Shown here piece by piece: positions 4,872-46,121 of a DNA stretch of 64,000 nucleotides. The notes beneath the pieces are model-generated. The model did not search any database, was not told the origin of the DNA, and saw nothing but the letters and a program-made list of their open reading frames with translations. The position numbers and the translations under genes are program-made. Origin of the DNA: a virus; the IMG/VR virus record IMGVR_UViG_3300037882_000456, positions 7,882 through 71,881 of that record; one strand, given 5' to 3'. The first letter of the stretch is position 1, and each line of letters starts with the position of its first letter.

Positions 4872-4914
4872 TTGATGTCAGTATAACACAATAAGTTTAC
4901 GAGTTATTCGCAAA

Positions 4915-28682: not shown

Positions 28683-28717
28683 TTGACTCTGTCGGTGCCT
28701 CATGCTATGGTTACACC
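28683..28717 (+). promoter_or_regulatory. Dual sigmaA / PafBC-type promoter, leaderless
   Basis: TTGACT-N17-TATGGT and TGTCGG-N10-TATGGT; ATG 6 nt after the -10. Confidence 0.75.
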
Positions 28718-28870
28718 ATGAACAACATCGAGAACGTCATCAGGAACATCGAAGCGGCAGACCGTATCGAGCGCGAGTGCGCCGAACGTGTCTCGTCGAT
28801 CCTCCGTACTGCGGTTGAGGAACTTCAATCGCTACAGGATCGCATCGACGCTGGTGAGTTCAATGTCTGA
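28718..28870 (+). CDS. Small early protein MNNIENV...
   Basis: Leaderless start. Confidence 0.6.
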   Translation: MNNIENVIRNIEAADRIERECAERVSSILRTAVEELQSLQDRIDAGEFNV

Positions 28871-28972
28871 TAAGCCTTGCGCTACCGTACGCGGTATGCT
28901 ACGCTCATCGAAAGGCTACATCGAGTGCCCCTGCTGTGGTGCATGGGTATACACAATCAAAGGAATTGAATC

Positions 28973-29155
28973 ATGCTAGATGCTATTGAGGCCCGCGACC
29001 TGTCCACTGGTGACTACCTCACTGCTGGTGTGGTGACTGACATCACCACTGGCCCTACTGGTCTGCTCATGGTAGAGTGTGCTGCCTACCCTGGTAGTGT
29101 CATCACCAACACTGTCACCCTGTCCCCTGTAGATGTGGTGTACATCACATCCTAG
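28973..29155 (+). CDS. Small early protein
   Basis: AAAGGA RBS; 'A.DL..GD' motif. Confidence 0.55.
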   Translation: MLDAIEARDLSTGDYLTAGVVTDITTGPTGLLMVECAAYPGSVITNTVTLSPVDVVYITS

Positions 29156-29223
29156 GGTATTGACATACCCACCCACCCATGCTACCCTATGGGTACAAGG
29201 TCAAACGAACTAAGGAATACACC

Positions 29224-29385
29224 ATGGTACACACTCTCACCCACACCGCCCAGGCTAGTGCTGCCAATGGGTACATGGATACGCTCTCATGCTCCTGTGG
29301 CTGGTCCTACACCGACCCCACCTTCCCATGGCTGGTGTCCTACGCGCGTCAGCACGCCGCCCGTGGTAACGCAGAGTGGGCCTGA
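29224..29385 (+). CDS. Small CxC...H protein
   Basis: Own TTGACA-N17-TACCCT promoter, AAGGA RBS, 'CSCGW...ARQH'. Confidence 0.55.
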   Translation: MVHTLTHTAQASAANGYMDTLSCSCGWSYTDPTFPWLVSYARQHAARGNAEWA

Positions 29386-29608
29386 TATGCGCCTCACCCG
29401 TAGGGCATATGTGCTCATCTACGGTACTGCCCTCATGGTGGGCATGTGGTTCCCATGGGAGAGCATGCCCTGGTATGGGCTAGACCTTAGGTAACAATAT
29501 CGTTACCTAACCATCGGCGTGTCGCCTTGACATACCGGCCCTAGCGGGCAAGACCTTGCCCGAGTGTACACGCGTACACTGTCTTAAGAAGGTCACTCAG
29601 GGTCACCG

Positions 29609-29678
29609 GAGAATCTGTTGCTCTGTATAGGGATACTCACCCTATACCGAGTATCTGTTGCTATATATAGGGATTCTC
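29609..29678. repeat. Two 30-bp units (GAGAATC-core-GATTCTC), 40-bp period
   Basis: 29609-29638 and 29649-29678. Confidence 0.85.
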
Positions 29679-29760
29679 ACCTTCGCATATGGTCACACAG
29701 GGTAGCATCTAGCGTTACACAAACGTTACATAAAATGTCCGGTATATGCCCATTCTAGAG

Positions 29761-29795
29761 TTGATTCTGTCAGACCCCCATGCTATGATCATTCC
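29761..29795 (+). promoter_or_regulatory. PafBC-type promoter, leaderless
   Basis: TGTCAG-N10-TATGAT-N6-ATG; also TTGATT-N17. Confidence 0.7.
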
Positions 29796-30065
29796 ATGAT
29801 AGAGATTAGCAAGCAAGCAAGCACCCTAGCGGTGGCCCTCCCCTCATCGTGCGAGATCATGGTGAAGGGCGTTCCTACCCTAGTCCGTATCCACAACGCA
29901 AAGCGCGTTGGTCAGATTTGGGCCTTTGGTATGGACCCCGCCGTGGAAACGGTAGCCATTGTGGACGGCGTTCACTATGGAAAGATCGTCGGGAAGGTCG
30001 GCCCCATCGCGCGGTTCGATTACCTTGACGTTGTGGAAATGCTCATTCCTGAGGGGGTGATTTGA
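29796..30065 (+). CDS. Early hypothetical protein
   Basis: Leaderless start. Confidence 0.6.
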   Translation: MIEISKQASTLAVALPSSCEIMVKGVPTLVRIHNAKRVGQIWAFGMDPAVETVAIVDGVHYGKIVGKVGPIARFDYLDVVEMLIPEGVI

Positions 30066-30247
30066 TAATGGCAAAGAATATCGCATTCGAATGCGGTGAA
30101 TGCAATTCCGGCGTCGTCCTTTGGGACGGTTGGAAAGAATCCATCTTTGATGAGTCGGAAATCGACGAATTCGAAGAAATTGTTTCTGAATTCGGAATTC
30201 CGATGGATATCGGAATGTGTTCACCGTGTGACCTTAGGTACAACTAA
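30062..30247 (+). CDS. Acidic Zn-ribbon-like protein
   Basis: CGEC...CSPC, Glu/Asp-rich. Confidence 0.55.
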   Translation: MIMAKNIAFECGECNSGVVLWDGWKESIFDESEIDEFEEIVSEFGIPMDIGMCSPCDLRYN

Positions 30248-30357
30248 GGTTTACCAAATCGTTACCTGAATGTCCTTGACATCTCAGGGCGAGCGGGCAA
30301 GATCTTACCCGCGCGGGCGCGCGTGTCAAGTCTTACGAGTGTCACAGAAAGTCACGG

Positions 30358-30427
30358 GACTTTCCCCTTATATACCAACAGATTCTCGCCTCGTGCCGAG
30401 AATCCCCTTATATAGCAACAGATTCTC
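30358..30427. repeat. Two 30-bp units, core inverted relative to 29609-29678
   Basis: 30358-30387 and 30398-30427. Confidence 0.85.
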
Positions 30428-30516
30428 GCCATCACTTTCGGTCACTCTCAGTGAGAAATCCCGTTACACAACCGTTACATTAGATGTCCGTTTTGCACCC
30501 CTAAAACGGCCTCGAC

Positions 30517-30544
30517 TGTCAGACCCCTATGGTACGCTTACACT
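30517..30544 (+). promoter_or_regulatory. PafBC-type promoter, leaderless
   Basis: TGTCAG-N10-TACGCT-N6-ATG; no consensus -35. Confidence 0.7.
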
Positions 30545-30748
30545 ATGAAAGAGAAGGGAGAAAGCATGATGATCAACAAGACTTACGCGATTGGCGCATG
30601 GTCGGCACCTTGCACCGTGTCCTATGGACACCCTGTAAATGTCACCCGCTATGAGCGCGTGCGCGTCGGTATCAAGAATGATACCTACGTTGCCACTTGT
30701 GAATGCGGCGCTACTCAGCGTCGGTTCTCATACGCAAAGCGTAAGTGA
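30545..30748 (+). CDS. Early hypothetical protein
   Basis: Leaderless ATG, or second ATG at 30566 with GGGAG RBS. Confidence 0.55.
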   Translation: MKEKGESMMINKTYAIGAWSAPCTVSYGHPVNVTRYERVRVGIKNDTYVATCECGATQRRFSYAKRK

Positions 30749-30843
30749 ATTCAGCCGACTAGGGCGGGATATCCCCTAGCCACAATAGGACCGGTGCCTA
30801 TTCAAATCCACCGGCAGCAAATCTAAGCAGTAAGGAAAGTGAA

Positions 30844-31062
30844 ATGGCTCGTTCAGTAAAGCAAGTGCCGGTAAAGTCCCTCAATTCGTGGGATCGAATT
30901 CAGATTGACGGTTTCGGTCGTCAGACTTTCACCATCATTAGCATTCGTGAGGATGCCGCTAATCAAATGCGATTCTTCCGAATTGCAGGATACAATGAGG
31001 GCGCGTTGCCGTCGCCCGTGGGAATTGCTTATGGTTCAATGGTTCGGAAGGTGAATTCATAA
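30844..31062 (+). CDS. Early hypothetical protein
   Basis: AAGGA RBS. Confidence 0.55.
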   Translation: MARSVKQVPVKSLNSWDRIQIDGFGRQTFTIISIREDAANQMRFFRIAGYNEGALPSPVGIAYGSMVRKVNS

Positions 31063-31352
31063 TGGCTCGCACCACGCCTTGCAGCGATGCAAAGAAAAGC
31101 CTTCGCAATATTGCTACCGCTGCGGTGGAATGCAATTGCTGCGGAATGTGGGTCAAGGAAAGGCGCACTAACGCTCACCGTGAATTGCAATTGTTCGCGG
31201 TGAATGAAGATACTAGAAAGGCGGTGCGTCTCTAATGGGATACATCGAAGTACAAAATGATCAGGGTGAATTCGTTCCGTTCGAATTCATCGACGCTAGC
31301 GTTCGCATTGATATCGAATGGGCGCTAATGAATATTGAGAAAGGAGAATGAA

Positions 31353-31538
31353 ATGGAATTCATCATGGTAGATGGAAAGCCTGCGGATATTGCTAAGTCA
31401 TATTCGCGCTTTGACACCTATTCGCCATTCCGTTACCGCGTATTGCGTAATGGTCGGCTAATCGGTAATGGCGTTACTAGGGAATTGGCAATTGCCGATA
31501 CCAATAAGCGACTAACCCAAATGGGTTATGCAAAGTAA
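31353..31538 (+). CDS. Early hypothetical protein
   Basis: AAGGAG RBS, start MEFIM. Confidence 0.5.
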   Translation: MEFIMVDGKPADIAKSYSRFDTYSPFRYRVLRNGRLIGNGVTRELAIADTNKRLTQMGYAK

Positions 31539-31558
31539 TGCAATTGTTACACACAGGG

Positions 31559-31579
31559 TTATCCACACCCTGTGGATAA
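31559..31579. promoter_or_regulatory. Inverted pair of perfect DnaA boxes
   Basis: TTATCCACA-ccc-TGTGGATAA. Confidence 0.7.
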
Positions 31580-31682
31580 CCGGGCAGGGTCTTGCCCGCT
31601 GTTACCAAAACGTTATTTAAGATGGCTTGACAACCTCACGGGGATCTGGTAGGGTGGTGCTAACACCAACCAAGGAGTGACC

Positions 31683-31883
31683 ATGTTCTACGTTTTCGCT
31701 GAGTTCGACGGTGACTTTGGCCGTAACCGCATCTCGCGTGGCTTTGCCACCGCCGAGGAGCGCGCAGCGTTCGCGTCCACGCTCGCCCCGGCCCCTGGTG
31801 AGGGCTGGTCGGACTACGAGGAGTGGGAGGCCCCTCAGAGTGAGTGGCCCCATACCCCCATCGGCTTCCCTCGGGGCTGGTGA
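31683..31883 (+). CDS. Early hypothetical protein
   Basis: Own TTGACA promoter, AAGGAG RBS. Confidence 0.6.
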   Translation: MFYVFAEFDGDFGRNRISRGFATAEERAAFASTLAPAPGEGWSDYEEWEAPQSEWPHTPIGFPRGW

Positions 31884-32012
31884 CGGGCAAGATCTTGCCC
31901 GCGCAGCGGGAAATGTCAATTTAAGAAGATCTGAAATACTCACGGGAAACGCTTGACAACCCTTGCCCATGCTGGTAGGCTGGCGGTACGCCAACCAGAG
32001 AGGAACCACCAC

Positions 32013-32210
32013 ATGCCCCCCTTCGACCCCGACTTCGACGCTGACAACCCGTACATCACCGACATTCCCGCGCGCTTCGTGTCCCCCGAGGACGAGGACG
32101 CTGACTTCGAGGACGCCTACGGCGTGTTCGCTGAGGCCACCTACGACCCCGATGGCGACTGGGGTGGCGAGGACGCTGGCATGGAGTTCGGCCTCTTCGG
32201 AGACTGCTGA
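32013..32210 (+). CDS. Highly acidic 65-aa protein (DNA-mimic candidate)
   Basis: About 20 D/E versus 1 R; own TTGACA-N17-TAGGCT promoter; GAGG RBS. Confidence 0.65.
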   Translation: MPPFDPDFDADNPYITDIPARFVSPEDEDADFEDAYGVFAEATYDPDGDWGGEDAGMEFGLFGDC

Positions 32211-32304
32211 CCCCAACGCTACCCCTTCGGGGGTAGCGCGGGCATGATCTTGCCCGCCTGCGGGCGGTTGTCAAGTTAAGATCATATGCTGAGACTCACG
32301 GGAA

Positions 32305-32332
32305 TGTCAGACCCATGTGCTAGGATGTCTCT
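32305..32332 (+). promoter_or_regulatory. PafBC-type promoter, leaderless
   Basis: TGTCAG-N10-TAGGAT-N6-ATG. Confidence 0.7.
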
Positions 32333-32524
32333 ATGAGACGAACCAAGCAAGCAGGAAATGATCACGGTATGCGTGCGATCTTCGACCGTGATGATCACAC
32401 GATCACCCTGACTACACACGGTAGCGGTGATGACCTGTTCATGTGGACCGAGCCGCAGGAACCGACTAACAAGCAACTGAAAAACATTCTGGAAAGTCAC
32501 CCCTGTACGGCGTGTCGCGTGTAG
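32333..32524 (+). CDS. Early hypothetical protein
   Basis: 63 aa, ends HPCTAC. Confidence 0.55.
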   Translation: MRRTKQAGNDHGMRAIFDRDDHTITLTTHGSGDDLFMWTEPQEPTNKQLKNILESHPCTACRV

Positions 32525-32527
32525 GAC

Positions 32528-32549
32528 TGTCGGACCCCTGTGCTACAAT
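32528..32549 (+). promoter_or_regulatory. PafBC-type promoter upstream of whiB-like gene
   Basis: TGTCGG-N10-TACAAT. Confidence 0.7.
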
Positions 32550-32578
32550 GGCATCATCAACCAAACGAAAGGCACGAA

Positions 32579-32800
32579 ATGCTCACTCCATGCCAGTCTC
32601 TCGCCGCGAACGAGGGTCACGACGTTGTGGACAAGTTGCTGTTCACGACCAAGCGCCGCGCTCTGATCGCCATTGAGTCACTCTGTGACCGATGCCCCGA
32701 TGAGGCCAAGTCGGACTGTGGCAAGCGTGCTCAGTCCATCGTCACGCCTGCCGGTGTGATCCCTGCCGAAGGCGTGTTCGGCGGTGTCTATTATGCGTGA
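32579..32800 (+). CDS. whiB: WhiB-like Fe-S transcription factor
   Basis: C...CDRC-x7-C...GVFGG; GAAAGG RBS. Confidence 0.7.
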   Translation: MLTPCQSLAANEGHDVVDKLLFTTKRRALIAIESLCDRCPDEAKSDCGKRAQSIVTPAGVIPAEGVFGGVYYA

Positions 32801-33014
32801 GATCGAAATGGCGCTAGACACCATCGAGCATATTGCTGGGCAAATGCGGATCGCTGCCCCGATGTTCGAGCAGTTTCCGTTCCTCAACTCCATCAACGTG
32901 ATGCGCGAAGAGGAATGTCTCGGTCAGATTGAGCGATGCGATGACTTCGTTGAGGGTTGCCGCTTCGTTCTAAACGCTTACTTCTTCGAGGTGCCCAATG
33001 AGTTCAGGATTTGA
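32793..33014 (+). CDS. Hypothetical protein
   Basis: Overlaps whiB-like gene. Confidence 0.5.
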   Translation: MREIEMALDTIEHIAGQMRIAAPMFEQFPFLNSINVMREEECLGQIERCDDFVEGCRFVLNAYFFEVPNEFRI

Positions 33015-33207
33015 GAACTACGATGACGAAACGCTCCGTATCATCGAGGCTAATCTCTTGCGTGGATTGGATCGCGTTGCAGATTCTATTGCCAACGGCA
33101 CGTTCACGCTGGTAGGCGAAAAGGGGTCAGCACCTCCCTGTGAGGGAGGGCAAATTACCCTCATCCTTCTCAGAGGCGTTCAAGCAGAACTTGACTCGCG
33201 CCTCTGA
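32998..33207 (+). CDS. Hypothetical protein
   Basis: GAGGTG RBS. Confidence 0.55.
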   Translation: MSSGFENYDDETLRIIEANLLRGLDRVADSIANGTFTLVGEKGSAPPCEGGQITLILLRGVQAELDSRL

Positions 33208-33292
33208 GTCGGGCAAGTTCTGCCCGCTGATCGTTATCTTCCTGTTATGACGAGGGCTTGACTTCACGGGAAATCCTTGATAGTATCGCGTC

Positions 33293-33658
33293 ATGCGAGT
33301 TTACAGGATTCAACATGAGGCCCGAGGTCATGGACCGTACATCATCCCGTTCTTTGAGGGTGACTACGATGACGAGAATGACAATGCGTACGACGATCTC
33401 ACTTCGCTGGCATACTGCCTGATCCGTGATCACCAAGACGATGACCACAAGGCACCTGACGTTATCCCTTCGCGCAAGGTGTGCGGGTTCGATTCTATGG
33501 CAGCACTTGAAACTTGGTTCGAGGGTTATCTCTCGGAGTTGTTCGAGGCTGGCTATGTTGTCATGGAGTTCGAGGGCGTGGACGTTCGCGTGCATGGTAA
33601 CGGTCAGGTAACGTTCGATAAAGAGTTGAGTATTCGCTTGACTTCCGCTGCGATCTAG
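33293..33658 (+). CDS. Hypothetical protein ('YRI.H...GPY...CGF' family)
   Basis: Leaderless TTGACT-N17-TAGTAT-N6-ATG. Confidence 0.65.
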   Translation: MRVYRIQHEARGHGPYIIPFFEGDYDDENDNAYDDLTSLAYCLIRDHQDDDHKAPDVIPSRKVCGFDSMAALETWFEGYLSELFEAGYVVMEFEGVDVRVHGNGQVTFDKELSIRLTSAAI

Positions 33659-34140
33659 GATACAATCATCCCATGAAGAAAAACAAGCGTCCCCAGAGTC
33701 CGAAGTCCAACGCACGCGTTCAGCGTGTCCAAGAGTTGAGGCAGGGTAGCACCACCAGCCCTCACCGCTCTGCGGCAGACTATCGCCGCAAGCCGAAGCA
33801 CGTTGGGCGTGGTTGGGATGAGTGATCGCAAGATGTCCCACGTTGATGTGCTCACCCGTGGAATGGAGCAGGGCCTCTCGTATGAGGATGCCGAGGCACT
33901 GGCCTTTCACCTTTGCCCCGAGTACCGCATGTGCTCCACCGCCCGCTATGTGAATGCGATCAACCGCATCCTCTCATAAACCTGTGTTGGCGCTTAGGGT
34001 CCGTCCCCATCATCCACGATGGGGGTAGCGGGCAAGATCTTGCCCGCGCCAGCGGGCTTGTCAAGGTCTTTATGATAACGATTTGATATCACGGAAGTTA
34101 CCTAACCGTTACCTAATCCCCTGCCGTATGGCTTGCGCTA

Positions 34141-34168
34141 TGTCGGTCCCCTATGCTAGAATCATCCC
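34141..34168 (+). promoter_or_regulatory. PafBC-type promoter, leaderless
   Basis: TGTCGG-N10-TAGAAT-N6-ATG. Confidence 0.7.
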
Positions 34169-34924
34169 ATGATGACAACGACGAACACCCTAGGCCTGCG
34201 CCGCTCCACCGACCGTAAGACCACCCCCTCCGCTAACAAGGCTGGCAAGGTTGCCAATATCGCTAACGCCTTCGGAATGCTCTCAGGGCGCGATTTCTCG
34301 TGTCCTGGTCAGACTGCCGCGTGCGAGGCTGTTTGCTATGCGGGGAAACTCGAACGCATCTTCGGCGGCTTTCGTGCCGTAATGACCGATAACTGGAATG
34401 CGCTTAGTAATGCGTCGTATTCCGATATGGTCGCGTCCCTTGATGCTATTGTCAAGGATTTCATTGTGGACGCGGATAAGCGGGAATGCGATAAGGTATT
34501 CCGCATTCACCACGATGGGGATTTCTTTAGCCGTGATTACGCGAGCGCGTGGGCTAATGTCGTGAAGCGTAATCCGTCCGTTCATTTCTGGGCCTACACG
34601 CGCTCATTCATTCCTGGCTGTAATGTCGTGGATATCCTTGCGGATATTCCCAATCTCACGCTTTACCTTTCGGTGGACGTCAATAACCTGGAATGGGCTA
34701 AGGTTATTACTGCGGAATACAATAGCGTCAAGGTCGCAACGCTTACCGATACCGCCGATGAGGGAACGGATATGATGCTTTCATTCCGTGAGCGTAAGGG
34801 TGGCGCGTGCCCCGAGGTTATGGGCCGTATCGAACTCATTACACCCGAGGGTGGCGCGTGCGTTACTTGTGCGCTTTGTGTATTCGGCAAGGCCGATATC
34901 CGTTTCGCTGCGAAGGGAAAGTAA
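34169..34924 (+). CDS. Gp88-like protein (Cys-cluster, radical-SAM-like fold)
   Basis: 'CPG...C...CYA', 'FRIH.DGDF', 'FWAYTR', 'C..C.LC'. Confidence 0.75.
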   Translation: MMTTTNTLGLRRSTDRKTTPSANKAGKVANIANAFGMLSGRDFSCPGQTAACEAVCYAGKLERIFGGFRAVMTDNWNALSNASYSDMVASLDAIVKDFIVDADKRECDKVFRIHHDGDFFSRDYASAWANVVKRNPSVHFWAYTRSFIPGCNVVDILADIPNLTLYLSVDVNNLEWAKVITAEYNSVKVATLTDTADEGTDMMLSFRERKGGACPEVMGRIELITPEGGACVTCALCVFGKADIRFAAKGK

Positions 34925-34926
34925 TC

Positions 34927-35157
34927 ATGGAACTCGGAACTATTGTTATGGCGACCGTTAGCCTAATGATTGCCGGAATGCTGACGGGATTGTTTATCTG
35001 GCTAACCGATGGTTGGTTTAGTCCTGGTATTGCCGTCGTGCTAATGGGGATTAGCGTCGTGTTTCTATTCACCGTATTCGGGTGGATTCTGCTAATCGGT
35101 TTGGGCGTTATCTGCGCCGCATTTGCCGGTATTCTATTCACAGATTCCGAGGGGTGA
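34927..35157 (+). CDS. Membrane protein
   Basis: Start MELGT; very hydrophobic. Confidence 0.6.
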   Translation: MELGTIVMATVSLMIAGMLTGLFIWLTDGWFSPGIAVVLMGISVVFLFTVFGWILLIGLGVICAAFAGILFTDSEG

Positions 35158-35933
35158 TAAAGGCTGCCCACGCCGAAAGGCGCGGGCAGGTTTTGCCCGC
35201 TGGGCAAAGCCTTGTCAAGTTACGAAGATCCTGAAAACTCACGGGAATTCCACTTGACATCCTAGCAGTTTGCTGGTAAGATCATGGCATGAACCTGATG
35301 AGGAAGCAAACGGCCAGAGCAGCGTCAAAGAATTCCCGTTTCACGGGCTGTGAGTGCTGCAATCCGTTGCCGTCCGTAAAGGTTCTTCGCAAGCGTGAGG
35401 AAAGAAAATGGAGAAAGGACTGGACAACCAGCCCATAGTCTGCTAGACTAGCATCTCCACCAACCGAAAGGACAGCATCATGCTGGGTTACACCGAGGCC
35501 ACCATTGAGCGTAAGGCCACCGCTCGCAACCTGACCGTCGATGAGTACAAGGCGGTTCTCATCACCAAGCGCAAGACTCGCGCGGAGCGTTCGCGCAAGG
35601 CTCGTGCAGAGCGCAAGGCGGCAGCCAATGCCTAAGCCCATCCGTGTCAGGGTCACCGACTCCAATGGTAAGGCGTACCTCTACATTGGTACGCTCTCCG
35701 ACTGGCGTGGTGAGAATCCTCACTTTGATCCGGTCGTGTATGGGTCAGGCGTATTCGTCCTGAACTGCGATCAGATCGTGAGCGTTGAGGTTCTTTACCC
35801 TGGACACCTTGACAACTCGTAACTAGTGTGCTACACTAGTTAGATAACTTCACAGAGTTTACGGTTGGTCTTAGTTCGTACTTGCTCGCCAACCGTCAAG
35901 CGATGGGGAAGATAAGATAAGCCCATCATTCTA

Positions 35934-45518: not shown

Positions 45519-45865
45519 CTCTTGGGTGGCGAGCCCAGCACCTTTTCTAGAGAGCAGGAGACGCCATAACCCCTGAGAATGCTCTGCATGAGATTCATTC
45601 GGTCGATAACCTTCATCTTATCGGGAAGGTCAAGTGGTGCGATCTGATCAAGGTAAACTCTGATTCCAATGTGCTGCATTTCAGGCATTTCAATAAGGTC
45701 GATTGTCACCGGCACCTTTAAGCCGATGGGACCAAGGTTGTGAATCGCTCTGCGTGCTGCAATAGGAACATTGACGGTACTAGCAAAGGGATTCAATGTT
45801 ATCTCTCCAAACCTTCCAGTCGTCCTCGGACTTATGCTTATTAAGTTTACCATCGATTGAGCCAT
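45515..45865 (-). CDS. Hypothetical protein (true start probably downstream)
   Basis: Overlaps whiB 3' end. Confidence 0.45.
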   Translation of the reverse strand: MAQSMVNLISISPRTTGRFGEITLNPFASTVNVPIAARRAIHNLGPIGLKVPVTIDLIEMPEMQHIGIRVYLDQIAPLDLPDKMKVIDRMNLMQSILRGYGVSCSLEKVLGSPPKR

Positions 45866-46121
45866 CTGTCAAATAGACACCGCCCCACACGCCCCACCGC
45901 TTCTCTTTAACCCCAACCTCGTGACAGTCAAGATTCACAGGGCAGGAGAGGCAAACCTGATCAACCGCTGAGGCTGTCACAGAATCACTGTATGTCAGCG
46001 AGCCCTCAGGAGCGTCCGTGTCGTCAAAGAAAAGGTTCGGGTCCATCCGATTGCACGAGGCCATCGCTTCCCAACGAAGATCGTCAGGGTCAATCCCTAG
46101 TTCATCTAGAATTGACGACAT
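45780..46121 (-). CDS. whiB: WhiB-family transcription factor
   Basis: 'W..MASC..MDPNLFF...CLSCPV..DC...GVWGG'. Confidence 0.9.
   Translation of the reverse strand: MSSILDELGIDPDDLRWEAMASCNRMDPNLFFDDTDAPEGSLTYSDSVTASAVDQVCLSCPVNLDCHEVGVKEKRWGVWGGVYLTDGSIDGKLNKHKSEDDWKVWRDNIESLC

Follow-up and report, generated by a model that had tools for sequence, protein, structure and literature searches.

The promoters read by the actinobacterial WYL activator PafBC, known as RecA-NDp promoters, are the closest described counterpart of the element analyzed here: six copies of the motif TGTCRG-N10-TANNNT that lie on the + strand, between positions 28690 and 34162, of a 64 kb stretch of viral DNA. This stretch (the window) is part of the 71.9 kb IMG/VR record IMGVR_UViG_3300037882_000456, which has an estimated completeness of 56%. 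The passages of PMC8635444 on the host promoters give an in vivo consensus of tGTCgg(N10)tA(N3)T and describe that the helix-turn-helix (HTH) of PafB reads the -26 element, that the promoters lack a -35 element and that the guanines are kept across actinobacteria; the passages of PMC11804915 on complex assembly describe that PafBC joins RNA polymerase and sigma-A on such promoter DNA only, and only together with single-stranded DNA (ssDNA). Sigma adaptation by PafBC is so far known solely as a host DNA-damage response. The phage sites share with the host promoters the 22-nt layout, the -26 element in place of a -35 element, the sigma-A -10 box, the frequent leaderless starts and the extension past the hexamer by ACCCC or TG. 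They differ from them in that they occur in arrays of 6-17 in phages of a lytic type, carry the TGn of an extended -10 element, have a stronger -10 box and a near-invariant hexamer, and possess a -35 element as well at 2 of the 6 sites. We consider it probable that the six sites are hybrid sigma-A promoters of the PafBC (RecA-NDp) type, which would be read by the host RNA polymerase with sigma-A and host PafBC, and would be strengthened by TGn.

Other systems show a partial likeness. The T4 middle promoters combine a MotA box at -30 with a sigma-70 -10 box, so that an upstream box takes the place of the -35 element, with an adaptor located at sigma region 4; a parallel between PafBC and this sigma appropriation by MotA/AsiA is drawn in the part of PMC8635444 that discusses it. 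In T4 the adaptors are phage-encoded, whereas the box found here is a host regulon motif and no WYL, PafC or sigma factor candidate was recovered from the phages (the MotA and AsiA families were not searched). The terminal redundancy of SPO1 and the pre-early region of T5 are multi-promoter host-takeover modules of large lytic phages that employ plain host-sigma promoters; the likeness lies in the many short cassettes of orphan genes, each with a strong promoter and a hairpin, and the difference in that some of the promoters described here bear the site of a host activator. Phages wired to LexA/RecA, for instance by LexA-controlled antirepressors, likewise couple phage expression to the host DNA-damage signal. 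Their wiring is repressor-based and serves prophage induction, whereas that considered here would be activator-based, in a phage in which no integrase was found. Finally, BrxR and CapW are presented, in the excerpted descriptions of these proteins, as WYL proteins that regulate defence islands and respond to ssDNA or to infection; they are host repressors of host defence genes, whereas here the site of a host WYL activator is found on phage promoters. An earlier reading of the window, made from the letters alone (the sequence-only reading), had known of no description of such promoters in a phage, and the titles, abstracts and passages covered indeed hold no paper that links the motif to phage promoters, with the reservation that supplements may already show ACCCC in PafBC logos. 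The passage of PMC12848934 that touches on the subject cites a 2025 study (Rafique) on pafBC and mycobacteriophage resistance, which may be relevant to pafBC as a host-dependency factor.

The motif in the window and in related phages

The window holds 8 matches to the motif where 0.86 would be expected, a number that was not reached in any of 100 shuffles (maximum 4). The enrichment is specific for the spacing, as N10 yields 8 matches and each of the spacings N5-N9 and N11-N17 yields 0-2. The sequence-only reading had put six 22-mers, with exactly this spacing, at 28690, 29768, 30517, 32305, 32528 and 34141 (+), and all were recovered there, each directly 5' of an open reading frame (ORF). The other two matches, at 4876(+) and 57103(-), are at chance level, and have neither a TGn nor an ORF start behind them. 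It was likewise correct that an ATG follows 6 nt past the -10 box at five sites (all except 32528), that two sites have a -35 element at 17 nt (TTGACT at 28683 and TTGATT at 29761) and that three have none (30517, 32305 and 32528). Absent from that reading was the TGn of an extended -10 element, which is present at 6 of the 6 sites. The -10 boxes match TATAAT at 4.33 of 6 positions on average, and five of the six sites continue after the hexamer with [A/T]CCC, three of them carrying the exact 11-mer TGTCRGACCCC.

The ORF behind the last site encodes a protein of the GP88 family, and GP88 relatives supplied 24 IMG/VR loci for comparison. On the GP88 strand, and at N10 only, the motif was counted 6 times in L009 (L011 has the identical sequence), 5 times in L010, 10 times in L016, 13 times in L017 and 14 times in L018; the remaining GP88 loci, including both ends of the Streptomyces phage Mildred21, hold 0-1 sites. 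L017 also has 8 matches at spacing N12, which probably come from -10 regions of the type TATATAAT that are read two bases later. Overall, the related contigs have 5-17 copies each, on one strand, and in the complete genomes the one-strand sites fall within a single module of ~10 kb (14 of 15 sites in G015, 17 of 18 in G037 and 10 of 12 in G017). A scan of IMG/VR with a stricter word returned at least 120 stretches, many with 2-4 matches, and a control scan with one base added to the spacer returned 54 stretches, all with a single match. In the set of 120 further IMG/VR loci listed (1.10 Mb, median G+C 0.39), the relaxed motif was found 808 times at N10, 53 times at N12 and 4-19 times at each of N6-9, 11, 13 and 14, with a strand distribution of 795 versus 13. 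The sequence-only reading had proposed a scan against shuffled controls; in the window, the relatives and the 120 loci, the enrichment is confined to N10. WhiB is encoded in 16 of the 50 related records tested, and in 3 of 3 among the complete ones.

The logos that were made from 54 sites and from 570 non-seed sites are devoid of information in the -35 region, and show an invariant hexamer that is followed by T/A and then G/C, a TGn, a near-consensus -10 box and an A located ~7 nt downstream. The motif strand holds 690 distinct sites with a strong extended -10 element; the hexamer is present in register and without mismatch at 354 of them, and with one mismatch at only 12. We know of no base-specific contact that RNA polymerase alone makes at the position of the -26 hexamer, and the conservation of the hexamer therefore points to a sequence-specific reader. 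The motif persists in contigs of 28-57% G+C with differing spacers and flanks. The hexamer could also be taken for a -35 element of the reverse strand, for which the scan flags one case (32310-32281); this candidate was rejected, as the logos lack a conserved -10 box on that side.

The six sites might in principle be due to chance or to the recent duplication of one promoter cassette, and the likeness of the spacers within the window (ACCCCTATGC), together with the 77% identity across 39 nt of the second and third promoter, would be in line with the latter. The flanks upstream of the window sites are unrelated, however, and the hundreds of sites elsewhere have variable spacers. With the outcome of the shuffles, the arrays in the relatives, the counts in the 120 loci and the logos of 570 sites, we consider this explanation to be ruled out for all practical purposes.

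The promoter type is also conserved in position. Orthologues of the GP88 gene, with 42-68% identity, keep it directly 5' in the window, L009/L011, L016 and L018, and the same holds for GP88 in G037, G017 and G057:C1. GP88 is preceded by a promoter of the canonical -35 type in L010, Mildred21 and L027-29, and the WhiB-like ORF also retains a motif promoter in L010. Being strand-specific, ORF-proximal and conserved 5' of orthologues in diverged relatives, the six sites behave as promoters would, a prediction that the comparison supports. G057:C1 is an 85 kb contig binned in a metagenome-assembled genome (MAG) labelled Bifidobacterium; it encodes ThyX and GP88, has 9 one-strand motif sites (mostly TGTCGGTGG) and resembles a phage contig that belongs to this group. 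The loci L019-L024 have a hairpin and a conserved word of the type TTTAAATATAGGG 5' of the GP88 homologue, which constitutes a different promoter type.

Host promoters and the two hexamer variants

The host of the window phage is very probably an actinobacterium, judging from its gene content: a WhiB gene is located at 45780-46121(-), and the GP88 and RIIA relatives are found in phages of Mycobacterium, Streptomyces and Rhodococcus. The GP88 family is distributed over 283 Mycobacterium, 99 Streptomyces, 4 Fromanvirus and 2 Synechococcus phage records, and the best RIIA matches (28-40% identity) are Streptomyces and Rhodococcus phages with genomes of 125-139 kb. Nucleotide and protein searches returned no near relative among the cultured phages. 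The window itself has a G+C content of ~51% and contains 27 tRNA genes and genes for a class II ribonucleotide reductase, ThyX, RIIA- and RIIB-like proteins, DUF932, collagen-like tail fibres and the GP88-family protein. The sequencing runs that hold parts of the window carry a freshwater label, and the shares are small.

Given the [A/T]CCC that follows the hexamer at five of the window sites, we searched host chromosomes for the corresponding extended word. TGTCRGACCCC-N5-TANNNT yielded 110 matches, spread over 59 of the 401 Actinomycetota genomes searched, and the reversed control yielded 3 (103 matches in 58 genomes when one genome flagged as unpublished, with 7 matches, is left out), and one TGTCRGACCCC match lies ~83 nt 5' of recA. 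Thirty host loci were examined, 27 of which have a downstream ORF, and the start is located 4-10 nt past the -10 box in 17 of these 27. Among the products of the ORFs behind the host sites are RecA, a RadA-like protein, SbcD (2), SNF2-associated DUF3670 (2), DUF222 (2), ThyX (2), an Exo_endo_phos nuclease and FtsK. The correspondence thus goes beyond the initial pattern, with the hexamer, the spacing, the downstream extension and the leaderless layout all recurring before host repair genes. A separate inspection of 30 recA loci from a phylum-wide sample showed.GTC.G-N10-TANNNT at a fixed place 5' of recA in 7 of the 24 readable genomes, and TGTCAC, TGTCGC or TGTCCG variants at N10 in other recA loci. 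The identification by the sequence-only reading of the motif with the PafBC (RecA-NDp) form was therefore borne out in sequence and spacing: all six sites have TGTCRG and N10, in agreement with the consensus given in the passages of PMC8635444, and the ACCCC signature, exact at three of them, recurs in the hosts.

The host sites differ from those of the phages in that TGn is found at 2 of 30 and the -10 box matches TATAAT at 3.37 of 6 positions; in the low-GC phage loci TGn is found at 410 of 642 sites and the match is 5.13 of 6 positions. Actinobacterial genomes were also reached via a ThyX alignment, the matches of which were mostly Firmicutes, with two useful actinobacterial entries, and the WhiB protein of the phage found no match in the genome contigs. 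The freshwater MAG G056, labelled Aquiluna, has tandem WYL-WCX genes, one of them with a PafC HTH (i.e. tandem pafB and pafC). The pair adjoins an ORF that, judged by eye and not by a family search, is TatC-like, and a position next to TatC is the known context of pafBC.

A second hexamer variant behaves similarly. TGTCACACCCC-N5-TANNNT was matched 227 times in 115 of the 401 genomes, against 2 times for the control (201 matches in 104 genomes after removal of 11 genomes flagged as unpublished, with 26 matches). Comparison of the tables by eye indicated that most host genomes use one variant, for instance G135 with 20 matches of the C form and 0 of the G form, and G456 with 7 of the G form and 0 of the C form; both occur in a few genomes (G136, G156, G081 and G404). 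The scan of IMG/VR for the C form returned mostly single chance matches, together with one 53.9 kb contig of 57% G+C that encodes two WhiB proteins and has 13 one-strand TGTCAC-N10-TANNNT sites, many of them TGTCACACCCC. With two variants in both host genomes and phage contigs, phages and hosts thus both split at position 6 of the hexamer, and this shared split is suggestive only. In L438 (record G459, which encodes WhiB) divergent promoters occur on both strands, in which TTGACA is followed by one base and TGTC..ACC; positions 5-6 of the hexamer vary in these promoters, and TGTC and ACC are kept.

Candidate readers of the -26 element

On the reading by host PafBC, the -26 TGTCRG, placed exactly 10 nt 5' of a TANNNT -10 box, would mostly stand in for the missing -35 element. 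Host PafBC, activated by ssDNA, would place itself between the DNA and region 4 of sigma-A (sigma adaptation), recognize the GTC within the -26 element and thereby bring in the host RNA polymerase. The transcripts would start ~7 nt past the -10 box; in five of the six cases this is the A of the ATG, so that they would be leaderless. Compared to the host versions, the added TGn and the better -10 boxes should make the phage promoters stronger and probably allow for some basal firing that is independent of PafBC. They would drive short, hairpin-bracketed cassettes that contain orphan small genes and the genes for the WhiB-like and the GP88 protein. Ordinary -35/-10 promoters lie in between, and the arrangement resembles a host-takeover module. 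The ssDNA might be derived from DNA entry, end resection, breakdown of host DNA or phage replication. Labelling the module as early is an argument by analogy, which would follow from the position of gp88 in L5/D29 and from its terminal-repeat location in Mildred21: gp88 of L5/D29, a member of the GP88 family, sits near the right end and adjoins gene 89, and in Mildred21 the GP88 gene is found in both copies of the terminal repeat. The gp88 region of L5/D29 is expressed early.

Several observations weigh against this interpretation. The cultured relatives Mildred21, Muntaha, Annadreamy, Trina and D29 have 0-4 sites, which is the control level; these five live on hosts known to carry PafBC, and the arrays are thus lineage-specific, something that would also be expected if the reader were encoded by the phage. 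In host chromosomes the plain motif is not enriched genome-wide over the control (9 versus 14 in G056, 21 versus 25 in G057, 12 versus 12 in G395 and 8 versus 17 in G298), and a PafC HTH was found in only 3 of 17 small Actinomycetota genomes, so that the hosts of the low-GC phage clade are only putative carriers of PafBC. The hexamer varies less in the phages than does the published consensus of the hosts. The TGn at all six sites, rare in the hosts, and the usable -35 element at two of them imply that the promoters may fire without an activator. Moreover, the swap of the GP88 promoter in L010 to the canonical -35 type means that both promoter classes may not differ in timing. Lastly, the negative results for a phage regulator, given below, rest on Pfam models.

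The lineage restriction of the arrays and the rigidity of the hexamer could equally reflect a reader other than PafBC: a phage protein without a WYL domain or a different host factor, which would act on its box as MotA does in T4, and whose mimicry of, or competition with, PafBC would account for the likeness to host repair promoters. An early activator could be expressed from the canonical promoters of the module, and most of the ORFs are orphans without a Pfam class. The complete relative G002 (115 kb) was scanned with Pfam for 150 ORFs, of which the best 25 of 70 matching families were considered, and such a scan cannot exclude small HTH proteins. Searches of the phages speak against it. 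At E<=1, a WYL domain, the presence of which elsewhere in the record the sequence-only reading had left to be checked, was absent from the own record, from those of five relatives and from five further records, of which three are complete. Neither the own record nor four complete relatives contain a sigma-70 region 2, by which a phage sigma factor was rejected as the reader, or a PafC-type HTH above the cut-off (the single match had 12.5 bits, against a cut-off of 32); a PafB-like sequence was not recovered from these five phage records by a protein search that had no positive control. The extended word including ACCCC is enriched before host repair genes and two hexamer variants occur in both hosts and phages, all of which a phage factor would have had to copy. 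We regard a reader of this kind as rather unlikely.

The TGn at all window sites and at 410 of the 642 in the low-GC loci, together with the near-consensus -10 boxes, may also signify that the sites are extended -10 promoters of sigma-A that need no activator, and actinobacterial extended -10 promoters can function without a -35 element. The TGTCRG(ACCCC) word would then be kept for another purpose, such as DNA shape or as a decoy that titrates PafBC and dampens the damage response of the host; each replicating genome would offer as many as 17 strong sites, which would make for a large sink. Against a decoy speaks the exact 10-nt register, which fits activation by sigma adaptation and would not be needed for binding only; against the independence of an activator in general speaks that 36% of the low-GC sites lack TGn and yet keep the hexamer. 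This makes promoters of that type improbable as the full explanation.

A motif of DNA-damage promoters might furthermore serve a temperate phage as an inducible lytic switch, with prophage induction mediated by PafBC instead of LexA. Searches of the own record and the four complete relatives returned neither a tyrosine nor a serine integrase. The large genome, the 27 tRNA genes in the window and the RIIA/RIIB genes argue against a temperate lifestyle as well, and so does G002, which has replication genes of its own (it encodes DNA polymerase III alpha, a DnaB-like helicase, RecA and a Clp protease, next to a pyrimidine-dimer glycosylase and endonuclease VII). The cultured relatives of the window phage are lytic. 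Such a switch is consequently very improbable.

Reading by host PafBC thus remains our preferred explanation. The stronger claim of the sequence-only reading, that the phage promoters are wired to the host damage sensor, is supported in part, by sites that are strand-specific, ORF-proximal, kept upstream of orthologues and of PafBC form; in view of the TGn at all six and the -35 element at two, the wiring may not be strict. The phage counter-measures that the alarm would switch on, according to the sequence-only reading, are hypothetical, as the small ORFs are all orphans. A more encompassing scenario, the chances of which we judge to be evenly balanced, is that an uncultured clade of actinophages of ~105-130 kb runs a module of small genes via the ssDNA-sensing PafBC of the host, by means of upgraded host-repair promoters, with phage lineages tracking the -26 variant of their hosts (TGTCRG versus TGTCAC). 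The alarm of the host, raised by entry of phage DNA, nuclease attack or replication, would in that same scenario act as the on-switch. The phage arrays may in addition drain PafBC from host promoters.

If the interpretation is correct, PafBC sigma adaptation would constitute a phage-host interface, in which the host faces a conflict between repairing its DNA and feeding the invader, and pafBC would be a candidate host-dependency factor. The motif would provide a simple sequence marker of actinobacterial hosts, and perhaps of host lineages, among uncultured phage contigs, and the several hundred natural promoter variants (750 distinct sites) could be used to dissect how PafBC reads DNA, including the ACCCC/TG extension and TGTCAC. 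The hypothesis is directly testable with the published in vitro system of M. smegmatis.

The gene module and other sequence elements

All promoters, ORFs and hairpins of the module that are given below lie on the + strand. P1 (28683..28711) consists of the -35 element TTGACT (28683-28688), the -26 element TGTCGG (28690-28695), TG (28703-28704) and the -10 box TATGGT (28706-28711), and precedes a leaderless ORF of 50 amino acids (aa; 28718..28870). P2 (29761..29789) combines TTGATT at 17 nt with TGTCAGACCCC, TGn and TATGAT, and is followed by two ORFs, at 29796-30065 (89 aa, leaderless) and 30068-30247 (59 aa). P3 (30517..30538) has TGTCAGACCCC, TGn and TACGCT, without a -35 element, and P4 (32305..32326), likewise without one, has TGTCAGACCCA, TGn and TAGGAT; the leaderless ORFs behind them measure 67 aa (30545..30748) and 63 aa (32333..32524), respectively. 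The ORFs behind P1 to P4 are without family. P5 (32528..32549; TGTCGGACCCC, TGn, TACAAT, no -35 element) precedes a Cys-rich ORF of 73 aa (32579..32800) with a 29-nt leader, and P6 (34141..34162; TGTCGGTCCCC, TGn, TAGAAT and a weak TTGCGC at 18 nt) the leaderless ORF of 251 aa (34169..34924) that belongs to the GP88 family (PF17338, E 1e-41).

According to the sequence-only reading, the site without an adjoining ATG drives a whiB-like gene. This could be upheld in part: the ORF at 32579-32800 has no Pfam or PHROG match (none at E<=1 to the Pfam WhiB model), and is homologous (E 3e-7) to an ORF of a relative that scores above the cut-off of the Pfam WhiB model when all six frames are searched, which would make it a divergent WhiB-like gene. 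The ten small ORFs behind P1-P5 were all without PHROG match, and their Pfam matches were all under the curated cut-offs.

The cassettes are bracketed by seven GC-rich hairpins of the type GGGCAAGATCTTGCCC (at 29546, 31582, 31885, 32240, 33211, 34030 and 35184, spanning 29546..35198), which lack a U tract, are not called by a simple terminator scan and are putative terminators. Interleaved with the motif promoters are canonical promoters, TTGACA/T-N17-TGnTANNNT, at 29160, 31627, 31953, 33258, 33638 and 35254 (spanning 29160..35282). On the + strand between 22 and 42.5 kb, another 17 TGnTANNNT sites combine a good -35 element with the absence of a -26 element, and the six motif sites are therefore an interleaved subclass among ordinary promoters of the same strand.

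Further repeated words were observed around these promoters. An element of ~30 nt with inverted ends, GAGAATC...GATTCTC, is present in two tandem copies upstream of P2 (29609-29678) and in two copies of opposite orientation, 77-90% complementary, upstream of P3 (30358-30428); with copies upstream of both P2 and P3 it therefore flanks the P2 cassette, and might act as the binding site of a regulator or as an origin-like iteron, or else mark the ends of a mobile cassette. TGTCAAG occurs ~10-25 nt past most of the repeated hairpins (30324, 32269, 34059, 35213, 36289, 37942 and 41010, +). It is the reverse complement of CTTGACA, the -35 word of the canonical promoters on both strands, and no good -10 box follows these copies on the minus strand. 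CACGGGA was found in 11 copies on the + and 1 copy on the - strand within 22099-42669, often just 5' of a promoter or within the spacer (e.g. 31941, 32297, 33265 and 37500). Finally, GTTAC(C/A)T(A/T)A boxes, in many cases as pairs, were seen 11-35 nt 5' of several of the -26 promoters (28669, 29502, 29725, 30474, 34097 and 34108 in the window, and ~2920 in L009), and the copy CGTTACCTAAT is common to the window and L009.

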